The notes beneath the pieces are model-generated. The model worked only from the letters and a program-made list of their open reading frames with translations, was not told where the DNA came from and ran no database searches. 64,000 bases of DNA. It comes from Methanomassiliicoccales archaeon. Its GTDB lineage: Archaea > Thermoplasmatota > Thermoplasmata > SG8-5. The stretch covers positions 1,233 through 65,232 of the forward strand of contig JAUWNU010000001.1 of the NCBI GenBank assembly GCA_030612505.1. Reading direction: 5' to 3'. The position numbers were made by a program, and so were the translations under genes. Numbering within the stretch: position 1 is the first letter of the stretch; every line of letters begins with the position of its first letter. Below, piece by piece: positions 8,392-54,605 of the stretch.

Positions 8392-10221
8392 ATGAGGCTC
8401 AACAGGCTTCTGTCGTTATTTGTCTTTGCTTCATTGATAGCCAGTATGGTCTTTGCTCATGTTCCGAATAATACCAGAGCAGCCCCCTTTACAATCACTG
8501 TACAGGGCAGCGTATTCAATGCCACTGGAGTGCCTGCACCAATAGGGACCGATGTGAACATCACGATTTATGACGGTGCGGTTCTCAATGGCGTATATCA
8601 AGCCAAAGTACTGGATTCCTTTGGCTTTTACTATAATGATTCGGTGAGCGCAGACAACGGCTTTATTATATCTGTCAATGCCAGCTTTGATTCCTTCTTC
8701 GATTATTCCAATGATACTGTAATGGCTGGCGATGCAAACTATGTGATCCACCTGGGCCAGGTAATTTATGGAGCCAGTATATCGGCCCCGGCAGATGATG
8801 AGGGGCTTCCAGGGACAACCATCACCTACATGTTCACTGTCGAAAACGAGGGCAATGTCAAGGACAAATATGACTTAAGTATTCTTTCACAATCCGGCTG
8901 GCCAGTATCCATAATTGATTCATATCAGACAGGTATTCTGATGCCCGGCGAAAGCGTTTTTGTAAATGTCAGCGTCACCATACCGGCGGAAGAACTGGCC
9001 CATGACACAGACACCATCACTCTGCGGGCCGAATCGGTCCTGGACCCAGGAAATGCCGGCACGGCAACGGCAACCACCACGGTACTGCTGTCTCCGGGGG
9101 TGGAGGTTATCCCGTCCCCAACAGCATCTGGCTATCCTGGCGATGCTGTCACAATGATGTTCCAGGTCAAGAATCTGGGCAACGGTCAGGATTCATTTCA
9201 CCTGACCGCTTCAATCGATGACCCGGGCTGGCAGTTCAATATGGAACCCGCCTCGGACACGGCCTTGCTGGCATCAAATAAAAGGGCATATATCAATATT
9301 ACAGTACAAGTGCCAGTAGATTCACTCTACAACGATTATGCCCTGGTCAATCTGAGGGCCGAATCCAATGCCGATTCTTCGGTCTCGGATGAGGAGGACC
9401 AGATGATAAGCACACTTCATGCCGCTGGCCTGGAATTGACAGGCCCGGACTCGGCAATCAAGGGCCACCCTGGCGGAATTGCGCAAGCCACCCTGTCATT
9501 GAAGAACACTGGCAATGGTCCGGACACCTTCACGTTCATTGTGTCCGCCACCCCCGACTGGGATCTAGATATGGCAACCGGCACCCTGGCGGGAGTCAGA
9601 TACGGTGAAGCCAGGAACTTCACTGTTGATTTAATCATTCCGACATCGGCCAGCATTGGAGAAGAGGTGGAAATCGAGGTGACGGCCAGCTCTGCCTCAG
9701 ATGCATCGAAAACCGACTCTGTCACATATATAATTCAAGTGGTTGCCAACAGGGAGCCGGTCGCCGTGATCTCATCCCCTGAGAACGGTGCAAATTACAC
9801 CACCAATGATACTATAGTCTTCAATGGTTCGGCCAGCCATGACCCGGAACACGATGAGCTGGTATTCAACTGGACATCCAGCATTGATGGAAACCTTGGC
9901 ACTTCAGCCGAATTCACTGCCAAACTCACTGCCGGAACCCACATAATCACATTGACGGTGGATGATGGCTTTGGGGGGCGCGACCAGAAAACCGTGACAA
10001 TCACGGTCACGGTGCCAGATGATTCAGGTACCCCTGGCGGCGATTCTCCGAACAACATCTACTTTTTACTGCTGGCCATAATCATAATTACCATAATTGT
10101 ATTTTTCATTGGATCCAGGTTCAGGAAAAAGCCGGAAACTGATGGCGATTATGTTGAACCGTCGGGCGACGAAGCCGAGAGAGAAAAATGGAGGAGGAAG
10201 AGAAATGCCGCCGGAGAATAA
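8392..10221 (+). CDS. Surface protein with CARDB/DUF11-like beta-sandwich repeats, a PKD-like domain and a C-terminal TM anchor
   Basis: N-terminal signal peptide. Repeats with GTTITYMFTVENEGNVKDKYDL, GDAVTMMFQVKNLGNGQDSFHL and GIAQATLSLKNTGNGPDTFTF. PKD-like FNGSASHDPEHDELVFNWTSSIDGN. C-terminal IYFLLLAIIIITIIVFFIGSRFRKK. Confidence 0.8.
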   Translation: MRLNRLLSLFVFASLIASMVFAHVPNNTRAAPFTITVQGSVFNATGVPAPIGTDVNITIYDGAVLNGVYQAKVLDSFGFYYNDSVSADNGFIISVNASFDSFFDYSNDTVMAGDANYVIHLGQVIYGASISAPADDEGLPGTTITYMFTVENEGNVKDKYDLSILSQSGWPVSIIDSYQTGILMPGESVFVNVSVTIPAEELAHDTDTITLRAESVLDPGNAGTATATTTVLLSPGVEVIPSPTASGYPGDAVTMMFQVKNLGNGQDSFHLTASIDDPGWQFNMEPASDTALLASNKRAYINITVQVPVDSLYNDYALVNLRAESNADSSVSDEEDQMISTLHAAGLELTGPDSAIKGHPGGIAQATLSLKNTGNGPDTFTFIVSATPDWDLDMATGTLAGVRYGEARNFTVDLIIPTSASIGEEVEIEVTASSASDASKTDSVTYIIQVVANREPVAVISSPENGANYTTNDTIVFNGSASHDPEHDELVFNWTSSIDGNLGTSAEFTAKLTAGTHIITLTVDDGFGGRDQKTVTITVTVPDDSGTPGGDSPNNIYFLLLAIIIITIIVFFIGSRFRKKPETDGDYVEPSGDEAEREKWRRKRNAAGE

Positions 10222-10300
10222 GAAATTCATTGAGGAGTTCATGGAATGTTGGAAGCGGTTCGAGGCCAGGGATTCGGGTGCTGGGGCGAAAGATACTTAA
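10205..10300 (+). CDS. Small ORF (31 aa, MPPENKKFIEEFMECWKRFEARDSGAGAKDT). Its 3' end is the left copy of the direct repeat flanking the HepT/MntA cassette, and it has a paralog at 11951-12031.
   Basis: ATG-initiated ORF. A C-terminal copy recurs at 11047-11130 without a start codon. Paralog MPPQGKRMSEEFLRAWLDFSTRKTNH at 11951. Confidence 0.3.
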   Translation: MPPENKKFIEEFMECWKRFEARDSGAGAKDT

Positions 10301-10310
10301 TGATGGAAAG
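10240..10310 (+). repeat. Left copy of a approx. 70-bp direct repeat flanking the mntA-hepT cassette
   Basis: GAGTTCATGGAATGTTGGAAGCGGTTCGAGGCCAGGGATTCGGGTGCTGGGGCGAAAGATACTTAATGATGG versus the 11070-11140 copy, with about 6 mismatches. Confidence 0.8.
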
Positions 10311-10389
10311 GTATATTCAATTAAACCAAATGACAGGAAATGATAAATCGCACTCATAACAATATATTTCAAGTGAAGGAGGAACGAGG

Positions 10390-10683
10390 ATGAAAAGCTT
10401 AGAAAAAATACAATCCATCTTATCTACACACAAAGAGGATATAAGGAAGAAGTATGGAGTTAAAGAGATAGGCATCTTTGGCTCCTTTGTGAGAGGTGAG
10501 CAGAAGGAAACAAGTGATGTTGATGTTCTCGTGGATTTTGAAGAAGTGCCTGATCTATTAAAGTTTATAGAGCTGGAAAGGTATCTTGAGGAACTTCTGG
10601 GCATTAAGGCGGACCTTGTGAGAAAACAGGCGATAAGGAAAGAGTTGAAGGATAGGATATTAGGGGAGGCTGGAATGGTATGA
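10390..10683 (+). CDS. mntA: MntA-type nucleotidyltransferase antitoxin
   Basis: GIFGSFVRGEQKETSDVDVLVDF NT motif. RBS GAAGGAGG at 10374-10381. 4-nt overlap with the downstream HepT gene. Confidence 0.85.
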   Translation: MKSLEKIQSILSTHKEDIRKKYGVKEIGIFGSFVRGEQKETSDVDVLVDFEEVPDLLKFIELERYLEELLGIKADLVRKQAIRKELKDRILGEAGMV

Positions 10684-11036
10684 AAAGAGACAATCGCCTC
10701 TACATACAGGATATTTTAGATGGCATTAATAAAATAGAGGAGTTCGTCGGGGACATGAATCTTGAAGAGTTTGCCGATGACGATAAAACCAGCAGTGCGG
10801 TTGTGAGAAAACTTGAAATCATTGGCGAAGCGACCAAGAACGTCCCTGAGGATATAAGGGAAAAATACAAAGAAATTCCCTGGGTTGATATGGCGAGAAT
10901 GAGAGATAAAATCATCCACTTTTATTTTGGCGTTGACCATGAGATCGTCTGGAAGGTTGTAAAAGAGCGGCTTCCGGAGATTAAACCATGGTTAATTGAA
11001 ATTATAAAAAATTGGGGGAACGAGTTAGATAGCTGA
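10680..11036 (+). CDS. hepT: HepT/DUF86 HEPN-family toxin
   Basis: DUF86 signature RDKIIHFYFGVDHEIVW (R-x4-HxY HEPN motif). Translationally coupled to mntA. Confidence 0.85.
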   Translation: MKRDNRLYIQDILDGINKIEEFVGDMNLEEFADDDKTSSAVVRKLEIIGEATKNVPEDIREKYKEIPWVDMARMRDKIIHFYFGVDHEIVWKVVKERLPEIKPWLIEIIKNWGNELDS

Positions 11037-11069
11037 AAAAGTCGATGATAAACGATTTCCTGAGGATTT

Positions 11070-11140
11070 TCTCGAGTGCTGGAAACGGTTCGAGGCCAGG
11101 AATTCGGATGCTGGGGCGAAAGATACTTAATGATGGGAAA
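11070..11140 (+). repeat. Right copy of the direct repeat flanking the mntA-hepT cassette. It carries the functional start of the DUF5678-like gene.
   Basis: TTTCTCGAGTGCTGGAAACGGTTCGAGGCCAGGAATTCGGATGCTGGGGCGAAAGATACTTAATGATGGGAAAG. Confidence 0.8.
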
Positions 11141-11393
11141 GAATATAGTTATGGAAGTGAATGCGATGAGAATAAACGCGCTGAAGAAAAAATACTCGGG
11201 TGAGTGGATGGCGATAAAGGTCACAAAGACTTCGCCAACCGGAGAGCCTCTTGAGGGAGAATTATTGCTCCGAAACCATGACCATGACAAACTATGGAAG
11301 AACTTGCCAAAACATAAAGGATTCAGAATTTACGTCACTTATGCTGGCAAACCCCTTGAAGAAGGATATGCAGCAGCTTTCCAAGTAAAATAA
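11130..11393 (+). CDS. DUF5678-like small protein (start at MMGKNIV; the ORF-track upstream extension is repeat-derived)
   Basis: SGEWMAIKV...GE.L..GEL resembles the DUF5678 family, which is commonly paired with retropepsin-like proteases in archaea. Its start overlaps the stop of the repeat-derived upstream reading frame. Confidence 0.5.
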   Translation: MMGKNIVMEVNAMRINALKKKYSGEWMAIKVTKTSPTGEPLEGELLLRNHDHDKLWKNLPKHKGFRIYVTYAGKPLEEGYAAAFQVK

Positions 11394-11410
11394 GCGATTA
11401 TCGGGGCATA

Positions 11411-11797
11411 ATGATGGATATACCGATAAATGAAGAAGAGCCAATAATCGTGTTAAAAGTGAATTTGACAGGGAAAACAGGTGAATACACGATAGACATG
11501 GCTCTGGATACCGGTGCCACTTATGTGATGATTCCTTGGTGTGTGGCAGAACATTTGGGCTATGAGCCTGCCGTAAGTCCAGAGAGGATTAACATTACTA
11601 CGGCAAGTACAACGGTCAAAGTGCCGCTGATAACGGTCGGGGCTATTGGCATAGGAGACATGACCGTGAAAAACATCAAAGTTGTGGTTCATGATCTGCC
11701 GCATAAAAGCAGGGTAGATGGCCTATTGGGTCTAAGTTACCTGAGAAACTTCGACGTATTCCTAAAATTTAAGAGCAATAAATTAACAATACTTTAA
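11411..11797 (+). CDS. Retropepsin-like (clan AA) aspartic protease
   Basis: Active-site motif MALDTGATYVMIP (hydrophobic-hydrophobic-D-T-G-A). Size of 128 aa fits a single-lobe retropepsin. Confidence 0.75.
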   Translation: MMDIPINEEEPIIVLKVNLTGKTGEYTIDMALDTGATYVMIPWCVAEHLGYEPAVSPERINITTASTTVKVPLITVGAIGIGDMTVKNIKVVVHDLPHKSRVDGLLGLSYLRNFDVFLKFKSNKLTIL

Positions 11798-11950
11798 TCC
11801 TGTAGTTTGATGTTTTTGAATCATCCTTGAGATAGGGAAAGGCCTGGATAATGAGCTGCTTCTGTCCGATACCAGAGTTCAATGCCGAACTGATTGCCAT
11901 ATTCATACCATTGGGAATGTCAGTAATGATTATTAGGAGGAAGAGAAAAT

Positions 11951-12031
11951 ATGCCACCACAGGGTAAGAGGATGAGTGAGGAATTTTTAAGGGCCTGGCT
12001 TGATTTTAGCACTAGAAAAACGAATCATTGA
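11951..12031 (+). CDS. Small ORF (26 aa) paralogous to the 10205-10300 small ORF, immediately upstream of the HTH regulator gene. Could be a leader peptide or uORF.
   Basis: MPPQGKRMSEEFLRAWLDFSTRKTNH. Preceded by AGGAGG at 11934-11939 and followed by a T-run. Confidence 0.25.
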   Translation: MPPQGKRMSEEFLRAWLDFSTRKTNH

Positions 12032-12067
12032 AGCTTTTTTATTTAACCCAATAACGCAAAATGCTTA

Positions 12068-12553
12068 ATGTATAATCGCATACTTGCTGACATGGATTTC
12101 GAGATTACTGTAAGCCGAAATGCGCCGCTGACCTCCCTGGACGACCTGGAAGAGGTTTGCGCTATTTTTCTTAGTAATATCGGGTACTTGCCAAAGGGTT
12201 ATGGCCCCCGTACTGGGGTATCTGAGATAAGGGAGAGCGTTCCGTTCCGCTTGTTTGTGGACTTTTTTTTACTGCGTCGGGACAAAACCTGGCTGGTGGA
12301 AGAACTGGCCCACGAGCTGAAAACCTCCAAACCCACAATTTACAGGCATATCAAGAAGTTGAAGAGCATGGATTTACTGGAAGAAGCTTATCTCGATACT
12401 GAAGCAGGCACACAGCGTAAGGGCTACAAACTGAGATATGGCAGCCTGGGAGATGCCTGGCATTTTGCCGAGGAACATGTTACAGTGGCAATGGCAAATT
12501 ATCGAAAGACTATTGATCATATTCAAACACTGGCAGAGAAAAAGAGGAAGTGA
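12068..12553 (+). CDS. Winged-helix (ArsR/TrmB-like) transcriptional regulator
   Basis: wHTH-like segment LVEELAHELKTSKPTIYRHIKKLKSMDLLEE. Confidence 0.5.
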   Translation: MYNRILADMDFEITVSRNAPLTSLDDLEEVCAIFLSNIGYLPKGYGPRTGVSEIRESVPFRLFVDFFLLRRDKTWLVEELAHELKTSKPTIYRHIKKLKSMDLLEEAYLDTEAGTQRKGYKLRYGSLGDAWHFAEEHVTVAMANYRKTIDHIQTLAEKKRK

Positions 12554-12557
12554 ATAA

Positions 12558-12848
12558 ATGAAGAAAGATGAAGAGGAAGACAATGGCGTGGTTTTAACAC
12601 CCAACTCAAGATACAGAATAAAATCCCTGGAATCCAGGGATAATCCACTGGTCACCAGCGGCAAGTTCATTGGCTACACCGCAATTGGCCATGACGAAGG
12701 CATGGCAATAGAGCTGGACAGCACCCATGATAAGGACAAGGGAAAGATTCGCATTGTGCCTACCCACACCATCATCTCAATAGACATTATCGAGGCAGTG
12801 GAGAAGGAAGAGAAAAAGCAGCAACGTTCCAGCACAATGTACGGGTGA
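12558..12848 (+). CDS. Hypothetical small acidic protein
   Basis: ORF with AGAGGAAG upstream. Ends ...STMYG, like the 13134 protein. Confidence 0.4.
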   Translation: MKKDEEEDNGVVLTPNSRYRIKSLESRDNPLVTSGKFIGYTAIGHDEGMAIELDSTHDKDKGKIRIVPTHTIISIDIIEAVEKEEKKQQRSSTMYG

Positions 12849-12858
12849 ACAATTGGCA

Positions 12859-12965
12859 TGGTCTATGCTTAGTTATCGTTAACAGAGGGTCTGAGTTTGT
12901 ATACAAAAGTGATAGGGTCTTTGCTTGGTTATTGTTAATTAGGGTCTAGGATATGCTGGCAATAA
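12859..12965 (+). repeat. Tandem 27-bp repeat array (about 4 units, same family as 28962-29115), ending in a terminator-like hairpin ATGCTGGCaataaaGCTGCCAGCAT plus T-run
   Basis: Units start with (A/T)GGGTCT and carry the core TATCGTTAA. Confidence 0.7.
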
Positions 12966-12990
12966 AGCTGCCAGCATCTTTCTGTTTTCC
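12948..12990 (+). terminator. Hairpin ATGCTGGCaataaaGCTGCCAGCAT followed by CTTTCTGTTTTCC, downstream of the 12558-12848 gene
   Basis: Perfect 8-9 bp stem plus T-rich tract. Archaeal terminators are mainly oligo-T, so the hairpin may be incidental. Confidence 0.35.
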
Positions 12991-13078
12991 TAACACCCTG
13001 AACCCAAACATAATCCAAACATGTTGCAAACACCCTAGCCCCTAGACCCTGAACCCTATACCCAAACATATTGTAAAC
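12991..13078 (-). repeat. Inverted-orientation copies of the same 27-bp repeat family (CCCTGAACCC/AGACCCT motifs)
   Basis: The reverse complement gives AGGGTCTAGGGGCTAGGGTG... The block CCCTAGACCCTGAACCCT is shared with 63751-63770. Confidence 0.6.
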
Positions 13079-13133
13079 GTCCAGTATCTAAGCCATGTAA
13101 TATTTATATCATGCAATTCATTAGAGGTATTGC

Positions 13134-13454
13134 ATGTCACACATATTCGACACCTCAAGCCTTGAAGGCAAGATTCTTTTACTACTGGTTGAGGTGTATC
13201 CAGTTACCATGAAGGACATATCCAATTATCTCAATGAATCAATGAAAAGAGTGGAGAGGAGCGTCCAGATACTTGCCAAGAAGGGACTGATAGGCCTGGA
13301 GCCTCTGCCAGATGAAATTTTTGTAACACTCACAAGTGGAGATTTTTCGTTCAAGGGAAAAGAAACCGAGCAACTGAAAAAGGTCCGGGAAAAGCTCAAG
13401 AAACAGCAGGACTGGCATCTGCCAGATGATGAAGATAATGTGATGTATGGATAA
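13134..13454 (+). CDS. Small winged-helix DNA-binding protein
   Basis: KILLLLVEVYPVTMKDISNYLNESMKRVERSVQILAKKGLI resembles a MarR/Lrp-like wHTH. Confidence 0.45.
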   Translation: MSHIFDTSSLEGKILLLLVEVYPVTMKDISNYLNESMKRVERSVQILAKKGLIGLEPLPDEIFVTLTSGDFSFKGKETEQLKKVREKLKKQQDWHLPDDEDNVMYG

Positions 13455-13477
13455 TGCTAAAAAGCAGATAGTTGAAC

Positions 13478-13515
13478 GCACTAGCGAATTAATAGCAAGC
13501 GTTCGACGATGGCAT
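13478..13515 (+). other. Conserved hairpin GTTGAACGC-(20-nt loop)-GCGTTCGAC followed by GATGGCATG. The same stem, with a 3-nt loop, is at 29118-29140 beside the 27-bp array.
   Basis: The 9-bp inverted repeat is conserved between the two loci while the loop length differs. Downstream AATGCC(A/G)TACTG is also shared (13530 and 29172). Confidence 0.5.
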
Positions 13516-13699
13516 GGCAACAATCTATTACTAAATTAAATGCCATACTGCTCATGGCAATCTGTAAGTAATAGGTGAATGCATAACTAAATCCAGCAAT
13601 AAAGAGCATTCGTCATGATTGATCAATGTCCAAGTAATCGCAATCAAAAAATTCCGTAATCTTCGTAACTAACAATCTACAAATAGAGAGATTATGGGT

Positions 13700-14248
13700 T
13701 TAATGCATTGACATTTCCATAAACCGCATTTCCCTCTGCTTTGTTTCTAGAAATCTGTAAACTGCAGAATGTTCAGAGCCTTCCAGTATCATTTCCACTG
13801 CCCGTCTGGACGCGTCCATTGACATGAGATCTCCGATTATTGCCACGGTGTTTCCATATATTGATAGTTCTGATTCAGATAGATCTTCGATAATTCGCCT
13901 GGTCTTGCCATTGGTGCCGATTAGTCTGGCGCGGATTCGTGCAACATGTTTGCGTTCCTTGCCAGCAAAGTCCCGGATGTCCACAATAGATAGATACATG
14001 TCTTCATTGGCCAGCTGCATTGCCCTGTCTGGAGAAAAACCTCTGGCTATGGCCGTGACAACATCCCTGGCAGCGAGACCCACCTGTCCTTCCTGAACTT
14101 TTTTTGCCTTGGGTATGACAGTTACCTCACCGATATTTGAGTCTATCTCTAGTTTCACGCCGCAGCTCCGCTCTATCTGGGTCTTGACTTTCCCGTCTGG
14201 GCCAATGAGCACACCAACGCGCTCCTTTGGGATTTTCACATAGAGCAT
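13700..14248 (-). CDS. KH-domain RNA-binding protein (archaeal Dim2/Krr1-like), downstream partner of RIO1
   Basis: KH motifs (IGPDGKVKTQIE, IGTNGKTRRIIE). Conserved archaeal gene order aIF1A-RIO1-KH. Confidence 0.8.
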   Translation of the reverse strand: MLYVKIPKERVGVLIGPDGKVKTQIERSCGVKLEIDSNIGEVTVIPKAKKVQEGQVGLAARDVVTAIARGFSPDRAMQLANEDMYLSIVDIRDFAGKERKHVARIRARLIGTNGKTRRIIEDLSESELSIYGNTVAIIGDLMSMDASRRAVEMILEGSEHSAVYRFLETKQREMRFMEMSMH

Positions 14249-31774: not shown

Positions 31775-34700
31775 GTGATTATACATATTATGTCCAATAC
31801 AAAGTTAAAGGTGTTCATAATGGAGAGGAAAGATGTTTTTGTGCGCGGCCTTTCGATTGTTCTTGTAATATCAATGGTTTTTGGTTCAATACCATATTTC
31901 ACAATGGCCTCGGAGACCGTAGGCCAGATTGATATTGAAGTGACTAATCAAGAATTGGCAACCTATAATCTGGCTGTTTCCGAAATAGAGCTCAAGGAGA
32001 TTATTCCTGTTGAGGAAAATCAGGGTTCGCCGGCGCCAAGCCCATTTGCCACATTTGAGATTATGTATGCGGATTCGGCTATTGATCAGGGTGCTGGAGC
32101 AGTGCCCGAGGCAACTGGCACTCCTGATGATGTTCGCTTTTCATTCGGTGGAAATGCAAATTATGTAAGAGCTAGCGGCTCTACCTGGGGAGCTGGAGCA
32201 GGCTCAATCCTGTCAGTGGAAATCGCAGCAGAATGGTCATCTAGTGGTCTGACTGATGATGGTGCAATTATCCAGTATTATGATTCTGGAATTGGCGGCG
32301 TGGGAGCCACAAAGACAGCTGTGGATGCAAACAACTATGCTGTTGATAACACACTCTATCTGGACATAACCGCAGACAAGGCTAGCTGGACCTGGACTGA
32401 TGTGGGTAATGTCAACCCTGAGATATATTACCTCAAAGCCGGAGGCCCGGACGGCGGAACTCTAAGCATTGATGCACTCTGGATACGGGTACAATATGAA
32501 TCCATTTCAATTGACTATGATATCCCTGTGACCGTTGGCTGGAACCTTATAAGCGTTCCTTCGGTACAGGGAAACACCGACATTCTCACAGTACTGGATG
32601 ATGCTGGCGGCGATACTACCTGGGAGAGAGCTTCACATTACAATCCCCTGATAGCTGATAATCTATGGCAGTCCTATTCTATTTTCAAACCACCTACCCT
32701 GAATGAGCTGAACGATGTGAACAATAAGCTTGGCATCTGGGTGGACATAACAGATGTGGGAAGCGATGGCCTTCTCACAGTAAGCGGCAGCCCGCCTTCC
32801 ATGACTGCAATCAATCTCTATGCAGGCTGGAACCTTGTTGGGTATCCCTGCTTGGAAAGCCAGATGGCTATGAATTCACTGGCTGGCGTACCATACGATG
32901 CTCTGGAATGCCATGATGGTGGAGCACCATACCTACTCAGAACAATGCTGAACACAGAAATGATGGTTCCCGGTATTGGTTACTGGATAAAGGTAACCAG
33001 CGATTGTGTATGGAATGTGGGAGACATTACACCACCTACATTTGCAGGTCTTGTTTCTGCCCTGGATGCTGGAACCGGAGGAAGCGTTCTGCTGAACTGG
33101 AATCCGGCAACAGACCCCTCATACCCCATTACCTACAATATTTACATGGCCACAACATCTGGCGGCCAGGACTTTGGAACTCCGGATTATATTACAGACC
33201 TGACAGATTTCCAGGTTGATGGTTTGACAGACAATCAGGACTATTATTTCGTGGTAAGGGCAAAGGACTCTGCTGGCAATGAGGATTCAAACCTGGTTGA
33301 GAAAACAGCAATTCCAACAACACCAGATGCTACAAGCCCCTGGATAACAGCAACTGTTCCTGCAGATGCAGCAACAGGAATCGGCATTGCCCAGTCAATT
33401 ATAATTACCTTTTCAGAATCAATCAATACAGGTACATTCGTTTATTCCTGCGCACCCAACCCAGGCGGTTGGATAGAAACATGGGATACATTTGTGGAAA
33501 CAAATGATAGAGTAACCCTGACCCGCAATGACCTGGCTTTCGACACATTGTACACATTCCAGGTAACAGCAGCGGATGACCTGGCAGGCAATCCCCTGGT
33601 TGCCGGACCGGCACTGAACCCATGGACATTCACGACTATTGCAGCCCCAGACCTTACAGGACCAGTAACTTCTGGAGTATCAGCAACACCCAATCCCACC
33701 GATGGTGCTGGCACAGTCACATTAACAGCAACTGTTGATGATTCAACCACTGGCGGCTCTAATATTGCAGAGGCAGAGTACTTCGTGGATTCAGTAGGCG
33801 CTGACGGAAGTGGAACACTAATGGTAGCCAGTGATGGAAATTTCAACTCTGTGACAGAGGGCGTAACCGCTTCAATTGATGTTTCTGGATGGGCGCTGGG
33901 AACCTACACCTTGTATGTGCACGGACGGGATGCTTCAGGAAACTGGGGTGCTACAGACAGTACAATACTAGATGTCACCAATACACCTGATATCACAAGC
34001 CCCTGGATTGTAATAACAGCACCGGTGGACGGAGCAACTGGCGTATTAATTGGCCAGTCAATTGTAATTACTTTCTCGGAATCAATTAACACAGGCACAT
34101 TCGCCTACACCTGCACACCGAACCCAGGTGGCTGGGGCGAATCCTGGGACGCTGCAGTCGAGACCAATGACAGAGTAACATTAACCCACAGTGACTTTGC
34201 ATTTGACACATTATATGATTTCCAGGTAACAGCGGCAGACGACCTTGCTGGAAATCCCCTGGCAGCCGGACCAGTTCCGAACCCCTGGACATTCACAACC
34301 GAGCTGGAACCGACACCACCACAGGTTGTAGAGCCAACTTCACCTGCAAACGGAGCAATAGATGTGCCAGCCACATCAAACATCCAGATAACTTTCACAG
34401 AGGCCATGAACGAGGCATCTGTGGAATCCTGGTTCAATATTAATCCGGCAACAGCAGGAACATTCTCATGGAATCCAGGCAGTACAATTCTCACTTTCAC
34501 ACCCACAGGAGACCTTGCATTTGACCAGGTATACACCGTGACGATTGACGGTCTGGTGGAGGACCAGGAAGCCGAGACACTGGACGGCGATTATGACGGC
34601 GTTTCCGAGGGAAGCCCGACAGATGATTATGCCTTCTCGTTCACAACGGAAGCGGCACCCACGCCGCCCCAGGTGGTAGAACCGACGAATCCGGCAAACG

Positions 34701-37483
34701 GGGATGTAAACGTTCTAGTTACAGCAGCCATCCAGATACCGTTCACCGAGGCCATGAATGAGGCAAGCACCGAGGCGGCGTTCTCCATCGGCCCGGTTGT
34801 CGCAGGTGCATTCTCCTGGAATGTGGCAAGCGATATAATGACGTTCACGCCGTCCGCCGACCTATCGTATGAAACCACCTACACGGTCACCATTGATGGA
34901 ACCGCCCAGGACCAGCAGGCCGAGACACTGGACGGTGATTATGATGGTGTTTCCGAGGGCTCGCCGACGGACGATTATTCATTCTCATTCACCACGGAGG
35001 CAGCGGTCACACTCCCACAGGTCACGTCCACCATTCCGGTAAACGGTGCCGCGGGCGTTCTGGTGACCGACCCGATAATAATAAACTTCAACATGGCAAT
35101 GTGCGAGGATGGAAACGGCAAGGCACCCTGGGACGCGGGTTGTGTAGAAGGGGCGTTCACGGTAACCTATGGCGCGACCACATTGACCGCAGGAGACTTC
35201 ACGATATCCTGGAACGCAGCAAATGACCAGATCACCTTCATTCCCGTTACTTCCTACCCCTACGGAACAGTGATGAGCGTGACAGTTGACGGCACGGCCT
35301 TGGAAACCACGGAAACGTACACCCTGGACGGGAATTACAATTCAGTATCCGAAGGCTCCCCGATAGATGACTATTCGTGGAGCTTCACCACAGAGCCAGC
35401 ACCCACACCGCCGCAGGTTGTGGAACCGACATCCCCGCCGAATGGAGCGGTTGATGTCTTGATCACATTGGTCATACAGGTAACCTTCACGGAGGCCATG
35501 AACGAGGCAAGCACCGAGGCAGCGTTCTCCATCGGCCCGGTTATCGCAGGCACGTTCTCCTGGAACCCCAGCAGCACTATTCTGACGTTCACGCCATCGG
35601 CCGACCTCGCGTACGATACTGTATATTCGATAATCATCGCTGGAACCGCGCAGGACCAGGAGGCCGAAACACTGGACGGCGATTATGACGGCGTTTCCGA
35701 GGGAAGCCCGACAGATGACTATTCATTCTCGTTCACCACCCAGGCAGCACCCACGCCACCCCAGGTAATCTCCACATCACCCACCGACGGAGCCATTGGC
35801 ATCTCTTTATCCACGACAATCCAGATTACCTTCTCCGAGGCCATGAACGAGGCAAGCACCGAGGCAGCGTTCTCCATCGGCCCGGTTGTGGCCGGTGTGT
35901 TCTCCTGGAACCCAGGCAGCACAATTCTCACGTTCACACCATCCGCCGATCTATCGTATGGAACCACCTACACGGTCACCATCGATGGCACTGCCCAGGA
36001 CCAGCAGGGCGAGACACTGGACGGCGATTATGACGGTGTTTCCGAGGGCGCGCCGACGGACGATTACACATTCGGTTTCACCACCGAGCTTCCGCCGCCC
36101 CCGCAGGTCACCAGCCACTCGCCAACCGATGGGCAGAGCAATGTCCCGCTGAGCGAACCGATCGTGATCAACTTCAACATGGCAATGAGCGAGGATGGCA
36201 ATGGCAAGGCACCCTGGGACGCGGGTTGTGTAGAAGGAGCCTTTAGCATGACCGGCGGACTGACCGCAGGTGACTTCACGATATCCTGGAACGCTGGTGT
36301 CGATCAACTTACTTTGACACCGGAAACCCCATACCCGAGCGGCACGGTCCTGACGGTCACCATAGATGGTACGGCGGAGGAATCCACAGGCACCCAGACA
36401 TTGGACGGTGACTATGACGGCACAAGCGAGGGCAGCCCCACTGACGATTACTCCTGGAGTTTCACCACGGATTCCGGCCCATCAACACCGCCACAGGTCG
36501 TCGAGCCGACCGCACCGTTCAACGGCGAAACCAATGTTGTAGCGAGCACCAACATCGTGATTACATTCACCGAGGCCATGAACGAAGCGTCAGTAGAATC
36601 CTATTTCTCCATCTCGCCAGCAGCAGCAGGGGCATTCTCATGGAACCCCGGAAGCACTATTCTCACCTTCAACCCGAATCCGGACCTGTCCACGACCACC
36701 ACATACACCGTGACCATTGACGGACTGGCAGAGGACCAGGAAGCGGAGACACTGGACGGCGATTATGATGGAACCAGCGAAGGCAGTCCGACAGATGATT
36801 ATTCATTCTCGTTCACAACCGAGGCTGGCTCGGTCAACAGATATGCGGTTTGTGTGGGGATAGACAAGCACGATGACGGCACAACCACTTGTATATACGC
36901 TGACAACGATGGCCAGGATTGGGGGAATGAACTTAATTCCCAGGGGTATTCCGTAAGCTCGCGCCTGAATACCGCTGCTGATAAGGCGGTCATACTGGGA
37001 GATATTGCAGACATGGACACTTCTGAAAATGCTGGTGACTATTGTGCCTTCACATTCGCTGGCCATGGTGGTGTCTCTGGTGGAACCCATTACATCATTT
37101 GTGCGGACTGGGATGGAACATGGGGAACGGTGATCAGCGACAGCGAGTTTGAAGCGGCCTTCTCTGGTTTCAGCAGCATGCATATATTCATATTCTTTGA
37201 CAGCTGCAACAGCGGTGGAATGAGCGAAGTTGCCGCGGCTGGCAGACTCCTGATTACGGCCTGTACGGCCGTCCAGAGCTCCTATGGCGGGGATGCCGCC
37301 ATGCAAAATGGTGTCTGGACCTGGTACTTCGTCGAGGACGGTATCCAGACACAGGGATACACCATAATGGAGGACTGTTTCAACTACGCCGCACCCGAGG
37401 CAAAGAGTTGGTTAACCACCAATTACGGAGTCACCATGGACCCCCAGATATTTGACCAGTACACAGGGGATTTCTATCTTTGA
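31775..37483 (+). CDS. Giant secreted protein (1902 aa): signal/TM, GWNL domain, FN3 domain, about 9 tandem Big_5 (SbsA-type Ig-like) repeats, and a C-terminal caspase-like (clan CD) peptidase domain
   Basis: FN3 at SVLLNWNPATDPSYPITYNIYMA. The Big_5 consensus PTPPQVVEPTSPANGAxDV...IQITFTEAMNEAS...FSWNPGSTILTFTP...YTVTIDG...ETLDGDYDGVSEGSPTDDY repeats about 9 times. The C-terminal region has FAGHGG (His) and FFDSCNSGG (Cys), in caspase-fold dyad order. Confidence 0.85.
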   Translation: MIIHIMSNTKLKVFIMERKDVFVRGLSIVLVISMVFGSIPYFTMASETVGQIDIEVTNQELATYNLAVSEIELKEIIPVEENQGSPAPSPFATFEIMYADSAIDQGAGAVPEATGTPDDVRFSFGGNANYVRASGSTWGAGAGSILSVEIAAEWSSSGLTDDGAIIQYYDSGIGGVGATKTAVDANNYAVDNTLYLDITADKASWTWTDVGNVNPEIYYLKAGGPDGGTLSIDALWIRVQYESISIDYDIPVTVGWNLISVPSVQGNTDILTVLDDAGGDTTWERASHYNPLIADNLWQSYSIFKPPTLNELNDVNNKLGIWVDITDVGSDGLLTVSGSPPSMTAINLYAGWNLVGYPCLESQMAMNSLAGVPYDALECHDGGAPYLLRTMLNTEMMVPGIGYWIKVTSDCVWNVGDITPPTFAGLVSALDAGTGGSVLLNWNPATDPSYPITYNIYMATTSGGQDFGTPDYITDLTDFQVDGLTDNQDYYFVVRAKDSAGNEDSNLVEKTAIPTTPDATSPWITATVPADAATGIGIAQSIIITFSESINTGTFVYSCAPNPGGWIETWDTFVETNDRVTLTRNDLAFDTLYTFQVTAADDLAGNPLVAGPALNPWTFTTIAAPDLTGPVTSGVSATPNPTDGAGTVTLTATVDDSTTGGSNIAEAEYFVDSVGADGSGTLMVASDGNFNSVTEGVTASIDVSGWALGTYTLYVHGRDASGNWGATDSTILDVTNTPDITSPWIVITAPVDGATGVLIGQSIVITFSESINTGTFAYTCTPNPGGWGESWDAAVETNDRVTLTHSDFAFDTLYDFQVTAADDLAGNPLAAGPVPNPWTFTTELEPTPPQVVEPTSPANGAIDVPATSNIQITFTEAMNEASVESWFNINPATAGTFSWNPGSTILTFTPTGDLAFDQVYTVTIDGLVEDQEAETLDGDYDGVSEGSPTDDYAFSFTTEAAPTPPQVVEPTNPANGDVNVLVTAAIQIPFTEAMNEASTEAAFSIGPVVAGAFSWNVASDIMTFTPSADLSYETTYTVTIDGTAQDQQAETLDGDYDGVSEGSPTDDYSFSFTTEAAVTLPQVTSTIPVNGAAGVLVTDPIIINFNMAMCEDGNGKAPWDAGCVEGAFTVTYGATTLTAGDFTISWNAANDQITFIPVTSYPYGTVMSVTVDGTALETTETYTLDGNYNSVSEGSPIDDYSWSFTTEPAPTPPQVVEPTSPPNGAVDVLITLVIQVTFTEAMNEASTEAAFSIGPVIAGTFSWNPSSTILTFTPSADLAYDTVYSIIIAGTAQDQEAETLDGDYDGVSEGSPTDDYSFSFTTQAAPTPPQVISTSPTDGAIGISLSTTIQITFSEAMNEASTEAAFSIGPVVAGVFSWNPGSTILTFTPSADLSYGTTYTVTIDGTAQDQQGETLDGDYDGVSEGAPTDDYTFGFTTELPPPPQVTSHSPTDGQSNVPLSEPIVINFNMAMSEDGNGKAPWDAGCVEGAFSMTGGLTAGDFTISWNAGVDQLTLTPETPYPSGTVLTVTIDGTAEESTGTQTLDGDYDGTSEGSPTDDYSWSFTTDSGPSTPPQVVEPTAPFNGETNVVASTNIVITFTEAMNEASVESYFSISPAAAGAFSWNPGSTILTFNPNPDLSTTTTYTVTIDGLAEDQEAETLDGDYDGTSEGSPTDDYSFSFTTEAGSVNRYAVCVGIDKHDDGTTTCIYADNDGQDWGNELNSQGYSVSSRLNTAADKAVILGDIADMDTSENAGDYCAFTFAGHGGVSGGTHYIICADWDGTWGTVISDSEFEAAFSGFSSMHIFIFFDSCNSGGMSEVAAAGRLLITACTAVQSSYGGDAAMQNGVWTWYFVEDGIQTQGYTIMEDCFNYAAPEAKSWLTTNYGVTMDPQIFDQYTGDFYL

Positions 37484-51062: not shown

Positions 51063-54000
51063 ATGAGTTATATTCATTACATGTGCGGGAAAAGAGTGTC
51101 AGTAATTCTTTCGATTATTCTTGTTATCATTCTTATTTTACCTGTTGTGAATCTTTCAGCAAACAAGCCAGAGCAAAAACCAACTCCTAAAATGAATCCA
51201 GTAAATAATGAAGCTTTCGGTTTTCCACCTGGCTGGTCTGACGACATTCAATTGACTTTCATACCTGGGTTGGGGTCGAATGTACGGGCTTCCATGATAA
51301 CAAATAGGGATGTCATCCACATTGTTTGGGAGAATATGACAGATGGCCATATCGGATACTGCCGTAGCGAGGATGCTGGAAGGACGTGGACAGAGCCTAG
51401 AATCATAACCTCTGGAAATGTGGCAGGGAACCCAAGGATTGCCATAAACGGTTCCCATATACACGTTGTATATGAGAAGGATACTGGCTTCACATCTGAA
51501 ATCATGTATCAGAACAGCACTGACAATGGTGAGACATGGAGTTTACCTGTGATGTTGTCCCTCAATGACGGAGTTTGGTGCGCAATACCAGACATTGCCG
51601 TTGATGGCGATAACATTCATGCGGTATGGGAAGATGAAGATGCAAGCGGACCCGGAATTTATGAGATTATATATCGCAACAGCACAGATGGAGGAAAAAC
51701 TTGGAATTCACAGGTTCAACTAACCAATTATCCAGGAGGTTCTGATGCATCAGCAAAAATCGCCATTAATGAGTCTGTAGTTCATGTGGTCTGGGGAAGG
51801 TTCGTTACTGCCACAGGCAGTTTTGAAACAATGTACCGCCGCAGCCTGGACGGAGGCTCAATCTGGGAAGCTGAAATGCAGATAACAAAACCAGGTTCTG
51901 GACATTCCTATGCCCCTGATCTGGCAGTGAACGGCTCCAATGTTTATGCAATCTGGATGGACAGCAGGGATGGTTCATGGGAAACGTATATCAACACCAG
52001 CTTCGATGATGGCCAGACTTGGAATGGAGAAATAAGGTTGACCGATGTTGATGGCCGCAACTCATTTGGGGCTCATGTAGGTGTCTGGAATGAGACTGTT
52101 TACGTTGTCTGGGGAGACCCGAGGGACGATTACCCATACCCGGAAGCGCATGAAGCCTACATGAATTATAGTTTTGATGGCGGTGTTACCTGGCAGAGTT
52201 CGAATGAGAGATTACAATTTGCTCTGAATAACTCCGGGCCAAATGATATTGCGCTGACAGAGAACTATATACATGTAGTCATGAAAGACAATAGGACAGG
52301 AAAACGAGAAATATATTACAAACGCTACCCCGACTTCCAAACAGATACCACAGCTCCTTCAATAGTTCATACTCCAATCCCAAACACACCTATTGGCCAG
52401 CTGATCAATATAACAGCAAAGGTTTCTGACAATGTGGCACTCTCAGAAGTATGGCTTAACTATACTGGCATTAATGGAACCAATTACAATGTTTCGATGA
52501 CCGGCTGGGATCAGAAAAAGGTCATGGTTTCTGGATTGGGGCAAACACTCTATGCCCAGGATGGTAATTATTCATTTGAGATTCCTGCGCAGAATGGTGT
52601 TGGTGTGGTTAGCTATTACATTTGGGCTGAAGACGTGGAAGGAAATTTTAAAAATTCTCCTTGGGGCGGTAGTTATTTCGTACAGGTAACAGGGCCGCCG
52701 AGCATTGAAGTTACAAATCCCGTAGGTGGAGAAATTTGGACTGGCGGGAGCAATCACCAGATTGAGTTCACCGCTTCAGATTCAGAGGACGACCCTGCCA
52801 ATTTGACCGTCTTCCTGAATTATACCTCCGGTGCTGGCGGAGCGATTGCCATACTTCAAGGGAATCAGACACCTTATTCCTGGACATTGCCTACTATAAA
52901 TGCGATTGATGTGAAGGTCAACGCCACTGTGGTTGACAGAGATGGAAACAAAGCCTACGGTGATTCTGAAATGTTCGAGATTGATACTTCCTTGCCAGAG
53001 GCCGTCTCGACAATGCCAGCCAATGGCACAACAGGAGTTTTCATCTATCAGTCTGTTGTCATCCAGTTTAACGAACCAATGAACACCTCCACCGTTACAG
53101 CGGCACAAACAGGCGGGATCGACCCAGGCAGTTGGTCATGGTTCTGGAATGTGGATAAGGACACGATTACTGGCATACATGATGCGTGGTCTAGGGGAGA
53201 TATTATTGAGATAACTGTTCAACCAAATTATAAAGATGATTCTGATCAGGGAAATGCTAACAGCACATCCTGTGTTTTTTCGTTCACAACCGAAACCAAT
53301 CCGTCACCTGAGATAGTCCACACAAATATTTCAAGTCCGCAGGAACTGGGGGATGAGATTAGAATAAACGCTACAATCACAGATGACAGTACAGTGATGA
53401 ACGCTGTTCTATGGTGGCAAGATATTGATGGTGTTTGGCATGAAAATTATATGAGCAAAAATGGCGATGATTGGGAGTATTGGATTCCTGGCCAGATGGC
53501 AGAAGGAAAAATAAGTTATCAAATCAATGCAACAGACGATTTACAGCAGAAAAATACCACGATAATCTATGAATTTAATGTTGAAGATACAACGCCACCA
53601 GTTATTGTTCATACACCTGTTGAGAGTGTATTAATTAATGAATCAATTAACATCACTTGCCAGGTTAGTGATTTAGGCGGGGCGAATGCTTCAGCGGTGT
53701 ATCTCTTTTACAAATGTGCAGGCGAGACTGATTATACCCAAGTAACGATGAATCCAGGATTTTGGTATGAAATACCAGCACAATCAATTCCAACCACAAT
53801 TGAATATTATCTTCTGGCTTCTGATTTCTATGGTAATAATGCTTCTACCTCTCTTTACTCTTTTGATGTAATTGATACATCCATACCAGATACTACACCG
53901 CCAGTAATTGCCCATACACCTGTTGAAAGCGCTGTTATTGGCGAATCGATAAACATCAGTTGCCAGGTTATTGACCTGGATGGAGTGGATATTGTCTATC

Positions 54001-54605
54001 TGAATTACAAAAATGAAAGTGATGTAAATTTCATCCAAGTAACAATGAATCCTGGCTATTGGTTTGAATTGCCCGCTCATTTTCTGCCAACAATAATCGA
54101 GTATTATATTCAGGCTTTTGACATATCTGGCAACGAGGCAGCAACACAAACTTACAGCTTGGAAATAATTGACCCATCTGTTCCAGATACAATGCCACCA
54201 GAAGTATTGCTAGCAACTCCGACAGGAGATAATTTTCCCATCTCAACGAGTATTTCAGTTGTGTTTAGCGAATATATGAATACGACCTCTGTGGAAGGTG
54301 CAATATCGATTTCGCTAGACATTTCCTTTAGCAGTTCATGGGCTAATAATCAAACTTTAGTTCTATCATTCACTGGCAACCTTTCTTACGACACTACTTA
54401 CACAGTTACAATAGATTCGGGAGCAAAAGACCTGGCAGGAAATACTTTGGCAAGCGATTATTCGTGGCAGTTTACGACATTAGGTGAACCAGAGGTAGTA
54501 CAACCCACAGCATCTAATGATTGGGGCTGGATTGGGATTATAATCTTTCTGATTTCGTTTATTGCTTTAATTCTAATTCATGGAGTTTACAAAGAGGAAT
54601 TGTGA
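51063..54605 (+). CDS. Surface protein paralog 1 (1180 aa): signal peptide, 7 Asp-box (BNR) propeller blades, Ig-like domains, Big_5 domain, C-terminal TM anchor
   Basis: Asp-boxes SEDAGRTWTE, STDNGETWS, STDGGKTWNS, SLDGGSIWEA, SFDDGQTWNG and SFDGGVTWQS. Big_5 segment PPEVLLATPTGDNFPISTSISVVFSEYMNTTSV. Ends GWIGIIIFLISFIALILIHGVYKEEL. Confidence 0.85.
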   Translation: MSYIHYMCGKRVSVILSIILVIILILPVVNLSANKPEQKPTPKMNPVNNEAFGFPPGWSDDIQLTFIPGLGSNVRASMITNRDVIHIVWENMTDGHIGYCRSEDAGRTWTEPRIITSGNVAGNPRIAINGSHIHVVYEKDTGFTSEIMYQNSTDNGETWSLPVMLSLNDGVWCAIPDIAVDGDNIHAVWEDEDASGPGIYEIIYRNSTDGGKTWNSQVQLTNYPGGSDASAKIAINESVVHVVWGRFVTATGSFETMYRRSLDGGSIWEAEMQITKPGSGHSYAPDLAVNGSNVYAIWMDSRDGSWETYINTSFDDGQTWNGEIRLTDVDGRNSFGAHVGVWNETVYVVWGDPRDDYPYPEAHEAYMNYSFDGGVTWQSSNERLQFALNNSGPNDIALTENYIHVVMKDNRTGKREIYYKRYPDFQTDTTAPSIVHTPIPNTPIGQLINITAKVSDNVALSEVWLNYTGINGTNYNVSMTGWDQKKVMVSGLGQTLYAQDGNYSFEIPAQNGVGVVSYYIWAEDVEGNFKNSPWGGSYFVQVTGPPSIEVTNPVGGEIWTGGSNHQIEFTASDSEDDPANLTVFLNYTSGAGGAIAILQGNQTPYSWTLPTINAIDVKVNATVVDRDGNKAYGDSEMFEIDTSLPEAVSTMPANGTTGVFIYQSVVIQFNEPMNTSTVTAAQTGGIDPGSWSWFWNVDKDTITGIHDAWSRGDIIEITVQPNYKDDSDQGNANSTSCVFSFTTETNPSPEIVHTNISSPQELGDEIRINATITDDSTVMNAVLWWQDIDGVWHENYMSKNGDDWEYWIPGQMAEGKISYQINATDDLQQKNTTIIYEFNVEDTTPPVIVHTPVESVLINESINITCQVSDLGGANASAVYLFYKCAGETDYTQVTMNPGFWYEIPAQSIPTTIEYYLLASDFYGNNASTSLYSFDVIDTSIPDTTPPVIAHTPVESAVIGESINISCQVIDLDGVDIVYLNYKNESDVNFIQVTMNPGYWFELPAHFLPTIIEYYIQAFDISGNEAATQTYSLEIIDPSVPDTMPPEVLLATPTGDNFPISTSISVVFSEYMNTTSVEGAISISLDISFSSSWANNQTLVLSFTGNLSYDTTYTVTIDSGAKDLAGNTLASDYSWQFTTLGEPEVVQPTASNDWGWIGIIIFLISFIALILIHGVYKEEL

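Follow-up and report, generated by a model that had tools for sequence, protein, structure and literature searches.

A mosaic direct repeat around a HepT/MntA toxin–antitoxin module in an archaeal chromosome resembles a common recombination scar

In a 64,000-nucleotide stretch of genome assembly GCA_030612505.1 from a Methanomassiliicoccales archaeon (contig JAUWNU010000001.1, positions 1,233 to 65,232; referred to as the window and numbered from its first letter), a complete mntA-hepT toxin–antitoxin (TA) pair lies between two copies of a direct repeat, each of which contains part of a small open reading frame (ORF) and of what is probably the leader of a downstream gene. A first-pass annotation had interpreted this arrangement as the insertion or recombination of a TA cassette with duplication of its target. 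As it stands, that interpretation is only partly supported, because each repeat copy is a mosaic of an old and a young layer, which are 36% and 8% diverged between the copies, respectively. We favour, with a probability of roughly 0.45, a history in which host recombination shuffled small selfish modules among paralogous small-ORF units within a lineage-specific TA/defence island. The locus looks like an ordinary recombination scar and not like a new kind of mobile element. All features annotated between 8392 and 12553 are on the forward strand.

The repeat was seen in three comparisons. A repeat search aligned 10218-10316 with 11048-11146 as a 99-nt direct repeat of 82% identity; blastn across the whole window returned a repeat core of 86 nt (86% identity, E=1e-24), with no further sequence scoring similarly; and base-by-base comparison set the homology at 103 nt, 10214-10316 versus 11044-11146, with 81% identity and 727 bp between the two copies. 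The 9 nt 5' of this homology (11035-11043 on the right) are 0/9 identical, and base-by-base comparison found no similarity 3' of 10316/11146. The flanking repeat of the first-pass annotation is, thus, confirmed at a length of about 100 nt instead of about 70 bp, the latter figure roughly matching the 61-nt core of 92% identity described below. In content, the repeat comprises the 3' part of the small ORF and TAATGATGG. At the 5' end, the left copy is complete and the right one truncated; at the 3' end, the reverse holds. The repeat boundaries fall at both ends of the TA module, with one illegitimate joint at 10316|10317, where homology to the right copy ends, and the other at ~11043|11044, 7 nt past the hepT stop codon. 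Since a complete module is located between two copies of the same junction, some recombination placed it in or next to the duplicated junction; this part of the insertion claim stands, while a simple duplication is not supported.

The two layers differ both in the degree and in the kind of divergence. In the old layer (10214-10255, small-ORF codons 4-17), the left copy is 64% identical to 11044-11085 (27/42), with 15 differences and only 5 of the 14 third codon positions identical (9/14 differing). The young layer (10256-10316), composed of small-ORF codons 18-31, TAATGATGG and 10 nt more, is 92% identical to 11086-11146 (56/61, five differences), contains identical runs of 15 and 28 nt, and has all 14 third positions unchanged. 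The contrast is significant by Fisher's test, both over all positions (P=8e-4) and over third positions (P=6e-4). Read in the small-ORF frame, the 17 coding differences leave the amino acid unchanged in six codons and replace it in eight, with a positive BLOSUM62 score for five of these replacements. The peptides score 117/153 against each other (P=0.001 versus random placement of the same 17 substitutions), whereas the remaining frames are interrupted by stops or give 2 synonymous versus 11 replacement codons. The 5' zone, hence, has the appearance of a pair of coding sequences held under purifying selection while their silent sites diverged to saturation, and the 3' zone is, by its substitution pattern, young or undergoing homogenisation.

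Small ORF 1 (10205-10300; 31 codons, MPPENKKFIEEFMECWKRFEARDSGAGAKDT) starts with ATG at 10205, preceded by the strong Shine-Dalgarno (SD) sequence GGAGGAGGAAGAG, and stops at 10298-10300. The SD-like stretch GGAGGAGGAAGAGAA (10189-10204), recognised in the repeat search and in a three-way comparison of the units, encodes RRKR in the frame of the upstream 609-amino acid (aa) gene, the end of which overlaps the small-ORF start by 17 nt. At the other end, the stop codon overlaps the next ATG (TAATG), and the same overlap follows copy 2. From this ATG in the left copy, the first-pass annotation had read a 7-codon stump (MMERYIQ); the actual ORF is MMERYIQLNQMTGNDKSHS, which has 19 codons (10300-10359) and extends from the left repeat into the TA leader with its first 17 nt alone within the repeat. 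Small ORF 2, in the right copy (11029-11130, IAEKVDDKRFPEDFLECWKRFEARNSDAGAKDT), is 5'-truncated; its frame opens at 11029, after a TAG at 11026-28, and the six-frame scan found neither ATG, GTG or TTG nor an SD sequence, the SD and the first three codons being gone. The annotated retention of the small-ORF start on the left and its absence on the right are, therefore, correct. Translation of small ORF 2 by frameshifting from hepT was considered and rejected, since the AGC-TGA-A context offers no slippery re-pairing.

Small ORF 3 (11951-12031; 26 codons, MPPQGKRMSEEFLRAWLDFSTRKTNH), taken from the ORF list and tested by peptide comparison, had been proposed as a third paralog, and this was borne out: among 2396 six-frame segments of the window, it is the top non-self match of the small-ORF peptide, with a score of 62 against 43 for the next. 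It shares 50-52% DNA identity with copies 1 and 2 over codons 4-17, its C-terminal half differs, and the 13-mer GGAGGAAGAGAAA is common to the SD regions of small ORFs 1 and 3; by these features, it is an older paralog. Three small-ORF units are, thus, present within 1.8 kb on one strand, each ahead of a different module, namely HepT/MntA, a gene pair encoding the X protein and a protease, and a helix-turn-helix (HTH) regulator with a 96-aa protein. As the third paralog, with the same SD and start, follows a relic sorting signal, the small-ORF units have multiplied independently of the TA module. Translation of the small ORF is probable. Small ORF 1 gave a weak, sub-threshold Pfam match to DUF3330 (E=0.019) and no NCBIfam match. 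The idea that the small ORF is a remnant of an IS3-type transposase N-terminus (...KR.SEEF...) was dropped, as no HTH_Tnp_1 or transposase family was matched at E<=10. Degenerate scans for the ECWKRFEA(R) core gave one match in GTDB representative genomes (an Acidobacteriota metagenome-assembled genome, MAG), six in JGI metagenomes, which had no flanking similarity, and none in IMG/VR, the window's own genome being absent from all three collections; all matches were judged to be due to chance. An uninterrupted small-ORF/DUF5678 arrangement, which the first-pass annotation had suggested looking for in other genomes, was found neither in these scans nor in the loci orthologous to the upstream gene.

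The nature of the young layer depends on where the gene downstream of the right copy begins. This gene, here termed X, encodes a 75-aa protein (11166-11393) with a conserved C-terminal EGYAAAF. The first-pass annotation had it initiated within the right copy, and the ATGATGG at 11130 is indeed in frame with X; gene callers picked GTG 11076, which yields a 105-aa protein. However, exhaustive HMMER searching retrieved 81 X relatives (E<=1e-3), mostly 71-85 aa in length, with N-termini that align to query residue 12-15, and the alignment of 49 members places the conserved start at ATG 11166 (MRINALKKKYSGEW...). As the repeat ends at 11146, 20 nt before this start, the left copy probably bears a truncated stump of the X leader and not a coding start. 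Dual coding of the young layer via the N-terminal extension from GTG 11076 is retained as no more than a minor possibility, the extensions of homologs being unrelated.

The 50 nt ahead of X (11116-11165) probably constitute a promoter of the BRE (B recognition element)/TATA type and the leader of the X-protease module. They comprise a TATA-like sequence, GAAAGATACTTAAT, at 11118-11131 (-48 to -35) and an SD-like GGAAGTGA before ATG 11166. Compared with the closest homolog, L004, 25/50 positions are identical without gaps at the same offset (shuffle P=0.003), including a 13/14 block, GAAA(G/A)ATACTTAAT, at -48 to -35; upstream of -50, the similarity vanishes. If this leader reading is right, the small ORF would run into the X leader and stop inside the TATA-like box, a truncated copy of which is contained in the left young layer (10288-10301). 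Because the young layer crosses this shared derived junction of small ORF and X leader, one unit must, on this reading, have been copied onto the other fairly recently.

A second, independent assembly (ENA ERZ4219663, NODE_2017) has the same arrangement and is 99.97% identical over 9551 aligned bases. The sole differences between the two assemblies are at 11101, 11104 and 11108 (6422, 6425 and 6429 in L001), spanning 8 nt of the right young zone; at two of these positions, the second assembly has the base of the left copy, and at the remaining one, a base found in neither copy. Such a cluster fits copy-copy exchange in the population.

In the favoured history, two small-ORF units would have pre-existed, both coding for a long time, and the old layer would reflect paralogy or xenology between them. 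The TA module would have joined through two illegitimate joints, the right one removing the SD and three codons of small ORF 2. Recently, and possibly repeatedly, the 61-nt junction zone would have been copied between the units by unequal recombination or gene conversion, and this exchange may still be going on. Both the order of events and gene conversion itself are inferred. X-protease modules elsewhere, which sit among other TA genes and in three loci between direct repeats, speak for this history, as does the lack of any recombinase among the scanned ORFs. Several observations weigh against it. The numbers being small, the tests argue only faintly against neutral decay of the truncated right copy after one old duplication (likelihood ratio P=0.11; Monte-Carlo P=0.04; conservative replacements P=0.06). 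The abrupt tract end at 10316 is not that of a textbook conversion and requires an illegitimate joint at this place. Assignment of the leader rests on L004, as five more distant X loci gave P=0.015-0.30 and no peak of leader identity at zero offset. The variant cluster could also stem from strain mixing or from consensus error in the repeat. Finally, no comparative genome with the small ORF was found by which the events could be ordered.

Signatures of mobility were sought in several ways. The window contains no tRNA gene, the repeat search detected no inverted repeats bounding the TA module, and neither an integrase nor a transposase was found among the island ORFs and about 25 other window ORFs scanned, which include archaeal housekeeping genes (AdoMet synthetase, RIO kinase, a KH-domain protein, CDP-archaeol synthase). 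Folding of the repeat against shuffled sequences, on both strands and with RNA and DNA parameters, gave no signal (z-scores +0.3 to +1.6), and Rfam had no match in 9500-14000. A structured RNA or an integron attC site was, thus, rejected, there being no hairpin folding and no IntI-like or other tyrosine recombinase among the scanned ORFs. Likewise rejected was transposition with target-site duplication, given 81% identical mosaic copies, no inverted repeats and no transposase among the same ORFs. For site-specific integration, the 28-nt identical run is present, whereas an integrase among the scanned ORFs and a tRNA target in the window are not.

The strongest competitor of module shuffling is a single old event, in essence the first-pass interpretation, which we hold possible though less probable. 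It would have inserted the TA module ~20 nt upstream of X, duplicating ~103 nt of the small-ORF/X-leader junction, for instance through template switching during replication, or when sister chromosomes recombined homologously on one side and illegitimately on the other; thereafter, the dead 5' part of the right copy would have drifted, while the 3' part was kept by conversion and/or by constraint from the promoter or an overlapping frame. This history needs the fewest events and yields the A-B-insert-B'-C structure with both homology boundaries at the TA ends; the shared junction implies that both 3' zones come from one junction, neutral decay of the right copy is tolerated at P=0.11, and the variant cluster is compatible with ongoing conversion. 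It must, however, accommodate 36% and 8% divergence within one 103-nt duplicate, with third positions saturated in one part and untouched in the other, as well as conservative replacements in a copy that would have been untranslatable since the insertion. The uniform 92% over 61 nt exceeds the promoter conservation in other X loci, the dual-coding extension is absent from homologs, and the third paralog shows that the unit multiplies without a TA module. Although it requires fewer steps, a single event, hence, fits the substitution pattern less well than shuffling. An error of assembly, that is, a chimeric join or a collapsed repeat, is very improbable: the source is a MAG and the two assemblies differ inside the repeat alone, yet both share the arrangement, the copies are 19% diverged with unique flanks and could not be collapsed over their whole length, and all genes across the joints are intact.

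Two further explanations assign a role to the repeated unit itself. It is unlikely, in our judgement, that the small-ORF unit is a functional, reusable leader or upstream ORF plus promoter, or a homology landing pad without a dedicated recombinase. Three same-strand copies, each before a different module, would suit such a unit, as would the SD and start conserved in copies 1 and 3, the TAATG overlap after copies 1 and 2, the protein-level conservation, and the local direct repeats that also bracket the X-protease modules of L004, L017 and L019. Copy 2, however, has no start codon and cannot provide a translated leader, copy 3 is without the shared C-terminal half and the TATA-like box, the folding and Rfam analyses were negative, the ECWKRFEA core occurs in no other genome or metagenome scanned, and the repeats of the other loci are unrelated in sequence and perhaps merely abundant intergenic repeats. 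Somewhat more doubtful still is the specific form in which recombinase-independent landing pads at the 3' ends of surface-protein genes let host recombination capture, duplicate and reshuffle modules into an integron-like array; if true, every captured module would acquire a copy of the promoter of the module beside it, and L004, L017 and L019 would represent the same process with different local repeats. A slightly smaller chance is given to attL/attR-like scars of a site-specific integrative element, which would have used the small ORF's 3' part as its target, brought along a partial small-ORF copy and since decayed to its TA module in the manner of a cis-mobilisable remnant. As at tRNA-gene integration sites, an intact target is here paired with a copy truncated at its 5' end, the 28-nt run could be the crossover core, and TA modules are typical survivors of decayed elements. 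Against this count the lack of an integrase among the scanned ORFs and of a tRNA gene in the window, the mere 727 bp between the repeats, and a third-position-biased, protein-conservative divergence that would not be expected of a non-coding attP mimic.

Known arrangements resemble the locus in part. Tandem att-site islands at the 3' ends of tRNA or small genes, with their cis-mobilisable remnants, likewise combine an intact with a 5'-truncated copy and line up serial modules split by short sequence copies; here, in contrast, neither integrase nor tRNA was found, and the copies show 19% divergence with coding-type substitutions at 727-bp spacing. Integron cassette arrays are similar in their serial, small, same-strand modules, in ~100-nt repeats that are ~80% identical, and in TA-type cargo, whereas the window has no IntI-like gene among the scanned ORFs and a repeat that encodes a small ORF in place of a palindromic attC structure. 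The "minimal mobile elements" of Neisseria and homology-facilitated illegitimate recombination describe modules without mobility genes that have homology on one side and an abrupt illegitimate joint on the other. They, too, lie in variable regions beside conserved genes, and usually they replace their anchor without duplicating it. In the present case, there are two copies of the anchor, with no known donor or alternative allele.

If the shuffling reading is right, the locus offers a small, clean example of how archaeal chromosomes gather TA modules and defence candidates that carry no mobility genes, through host recombination at short repeated units, with the newcomer able to take over a promoter copy from the module next to it. 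The locus further illustrates that a flanking duplication can mix old paralogy with recent exchange, so that averaged identity misleads on age. Current understanding is not overturned by the locus. Two by-products are perhaps more useful than the repeat, namely a widespread, sometimes fused, two-gene X-protease module in TA islands and a lineage-specific 31-codon ORF with a protein-level conservation signal.

The TA module itself is, as judged from its domains and motifs, a Class I HepT/MntA (type VII) module, intact and of the usual kind. It begins with a 73-nt leader (10317-10389) containing the AT-rich box AATATATTT and an SD sequence, GGAGGA, 7 nt before the ATG of mntA. The mntA gene (10390-10683) encodes a 97-aa minimal nucleotidyltransferase antitoxin (PF01909, 2.5e-17; PADLOC PDC-S09, 3.8e-31) and overlaps by ATGA with hepT (10680-11036), encoding a 118-aa HEPN RNase toxin (PF01934, 4.5e-29; 101 bits against a cutoff of 23.5); both genes are intact. 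A regex search located GSX10DXD in MntA (GSFVRGEQKETSDVD) and RX4HXY in HepT (RDKIIHFY), which are the signature motifs of Class I HepT/MntA pairs, where MntA neutralises the HEPN RNase by adding adenosine monophosphates (AMPs) to the motif tyrosine (PMC7641770). MntA is, accordingly to this precedent, predicted to oligo-AMPylate the RX4HXY tyrosine and, thereby, to neutralise the HepT RNase. Shewanella oneidensis SO_3166/SO_3165 and Thermococcus cleftensis CL1_0071/CL1_0070 (PMC7641770) have the same organisation, with a PF01909 MNT gene upstream of and overlapping a PF01934 HEPN gene; these Class I systems also share both motifs and the small size of the proteins, and the present host is an archaeon. 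The module shows no difference from known Class I systems beyond the scores of the NCBIfam equivalogs, MntA_antitoxin (42.3 bits) and HepT_toxin (38 bits), both under the cutoff of 60; on these scores, the pair is a divergent member of type VII TA systems, the equivalog models being narrow.

Whatever the history of the locus, the TA module is predicted to work in the standard manner of type VII systems. From the surface-protein operon, a series of ORFs with short gaps or partial overlaps leads into it, and transcription could proceed by read-through from this operon, from the TATA-like box of the left repeat, or from the module's own AT-rich box. The left repeat may, thus, be an upstream promoter copy for the TA module. 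The window has another MNT/HEPN pair, which belongs to Class II (PF01909 plus PF05168; 1576-1959 and 1874-2320); it starts with an ATGA overlap on the stop codon of a membrane-anchored surface-protein gene (38-1579) with a PEF-CTERM-like tail. By virtue of this overlap, both MNT/HEPN modules of the window are located directly 3' of surface-protein genes.

The X-protease module follows the right repeat. X precedes by 17 nt a retropepsin-like clan AA aspartic protease of 128 aa (11411-11797; PF13650, 4.4e-16), which is also matched by TIGR02281 (2.8e-15, just under cutoff) and by PADLOC PDC-M08B (2.5e-8), so that it resembles component B of the PADLOC phage-defence candidate PDC-M08, while X matches no PADLOC model. 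X gave no Pfam match in its 87-aa (from ATG 11130) or 76-aa reading at E<=10, nor in its 75-aa reading at E<=0.01, and the 87-aa reading had no match in NCBIfam. Five of 49 X-family members reach PF18929 (DUF5678; best E=2e-4), the sole Pfam family matched by any member. The DUF5678-like designation of the first-pass annotation is, hence, acceptable as a loose family label, though not earned by the window protein's own score. A word-index search with the downstream protein returned only itself. The AlphaFold2 model of X has a predicted local distance difference test (pLDDT) score of 93, and searches of the PDB gave no significant sequence match and no fold match (best E=1 for the fold). No relevant literature was found on DUF5678, nor on any link of retropepsin-like proteins with TA systems in archaea.

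In all seven other loci that extend beyond the protease on its upstream side (L004, L005, L017, L019, L020, L022 and L023), X is immediately upstream of it, in keeping with a module defined as an X gene of ~72-78 aa directly followed by a clan AA protease of ~128 aa; the truncated locus L003 contains a partial X. Natural fusions of the two (P0108 and P0123) and a tandem double X (P0105) occur as well, and X may be an inhibitor or a substrate-like partner of the protease. The module is found in archaeal and apparently bacterial contigs, often within TA islands, where its neighbours are HEPN/nucleotidyltransferase, PIN, DUF2283 and MazE-type genes. In L004, L017 and L019, it lies between local direct repeats of 100-350 nt and 74-82% identity (L004, 340-515 versus 1425-1598; L017, 526-685 versus 1876-2036, with extra repeats at 337-385/1587-1635/1743-1791; L019, 842-1041, 2500-2699 and 4613-4812). 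These repeats are unrelated in sequence to the window unit and without hairpin folding signal; they may be a general signature of module shuffling or abundant intergenic repeats. The upstream repeat copy of L004 is the relic 3' end of a MazE-like gene, of which an intact copy is located downstream on the other strand. L005, from the Thermoplasmata chromosome CP070672, contains three tandem ~164-nt units (198-623; 77-85% identical) upstream of a 543-aa gene.

Upstream of the repeats, a gene for a 609-aa membrane-anchored surface protein (8392-10221; choice-of-anchor T, PKD and Ig-like domains by Pfam and NCBIfam) ends in ...GDEAEREKWRRKRNAAGE. Its last ~13 codons, REKWRRKRNAAGE, are absent from two orthologs of 63% and 59% identity, which have the acidic ends ...DDGEA and ...EPADE. 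The 63% ortholog, annotated as Thermoplasmata archaeon, is syntenic with an upstream giant FG-GAP protein. In the orthologous loci of the two related assemblies, the DNA downstream is unrelated, and no small ORF, TA module or X-protease module was found in it; L012 has a mechanosensitive channel gene there. Because these loci lack its contents, the region from ~10186 to ~13600 constitutes a lineage-specific island of ~3.4 kb, across which the GC content drops from ~0.50 to 0.36-0.45. By this comparison, the island begins on the left with a junction that falls within the 3'-terminal part of the surface-protein gene. The basic tail REKWRRKRNAAGE lies where small ORF 1 has its SD and start, and it also coincides with RRKRKYATTG, in which the relic sorting signal ends (tails compared: window 10180-10221, L012 11780-11833 and L016 1990-2036).

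This relic, ahead of small ORF 3, is a putative surface-protein 3' end (11836-11967, GKAWIMSCFCPIPEFNAELIAIFIPLGMSVMIIRRKRKYATTG; weak matches to Loki-CTERM, E=0.011 and under the cutoff, and Heimdall-CTERM, E=0.026). The open stretch of 44 codons, ...PIPEFNAELIAIFIPLGMSVMIIRRKRKYATTG, resembles a C-terminal sorting signal and also the C-terminus IPEFDAIIVPILMFIPIIIITGRRKRQ of the surface-protein gene at 38-1579. The first gene after small ORF 3 encodes an ArsR/Lrs14-like HTH regulator (12068-12553; Pfam HTH_20, HTH_11 and HTH_5, and NCBIfam).

Further features of the island and of the window were noted in passing. The 96-aa protein (12558-12848), which matches no known family, and a 106-aa HTH protein (13134-13454) both end in ...MYG. 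Between their genes (12849-13133), three GGGTCT motifs (~12885-12950) face AGACCC repeats (12995-13078; three ACCCTGAACCCAAACATA-like copies), and a perfect 7-bp hairpin, GCTGGCA...TGCCAGC, is followed by a T-rich run; these could serve as an operator and a terminator preceding the HTH gene (13134). The GGAGAAGGAAGAGAAA motif occurs for a third time close to the 3' end of the 96-aa gene (12799-12815). Rapidly duplicating surface-protein genes dominate the window: a 1902-aa gene has internal repeats of 270-350 nt (33300-36850), and between 50000 and 63650, three tandem paralogous units of ~4.3-4.7 kb, 64-90% identical at the DNA level, each contain a ~1180-aa surface-protein gene (51063-54605, 55406-58957 and 60099-63623).

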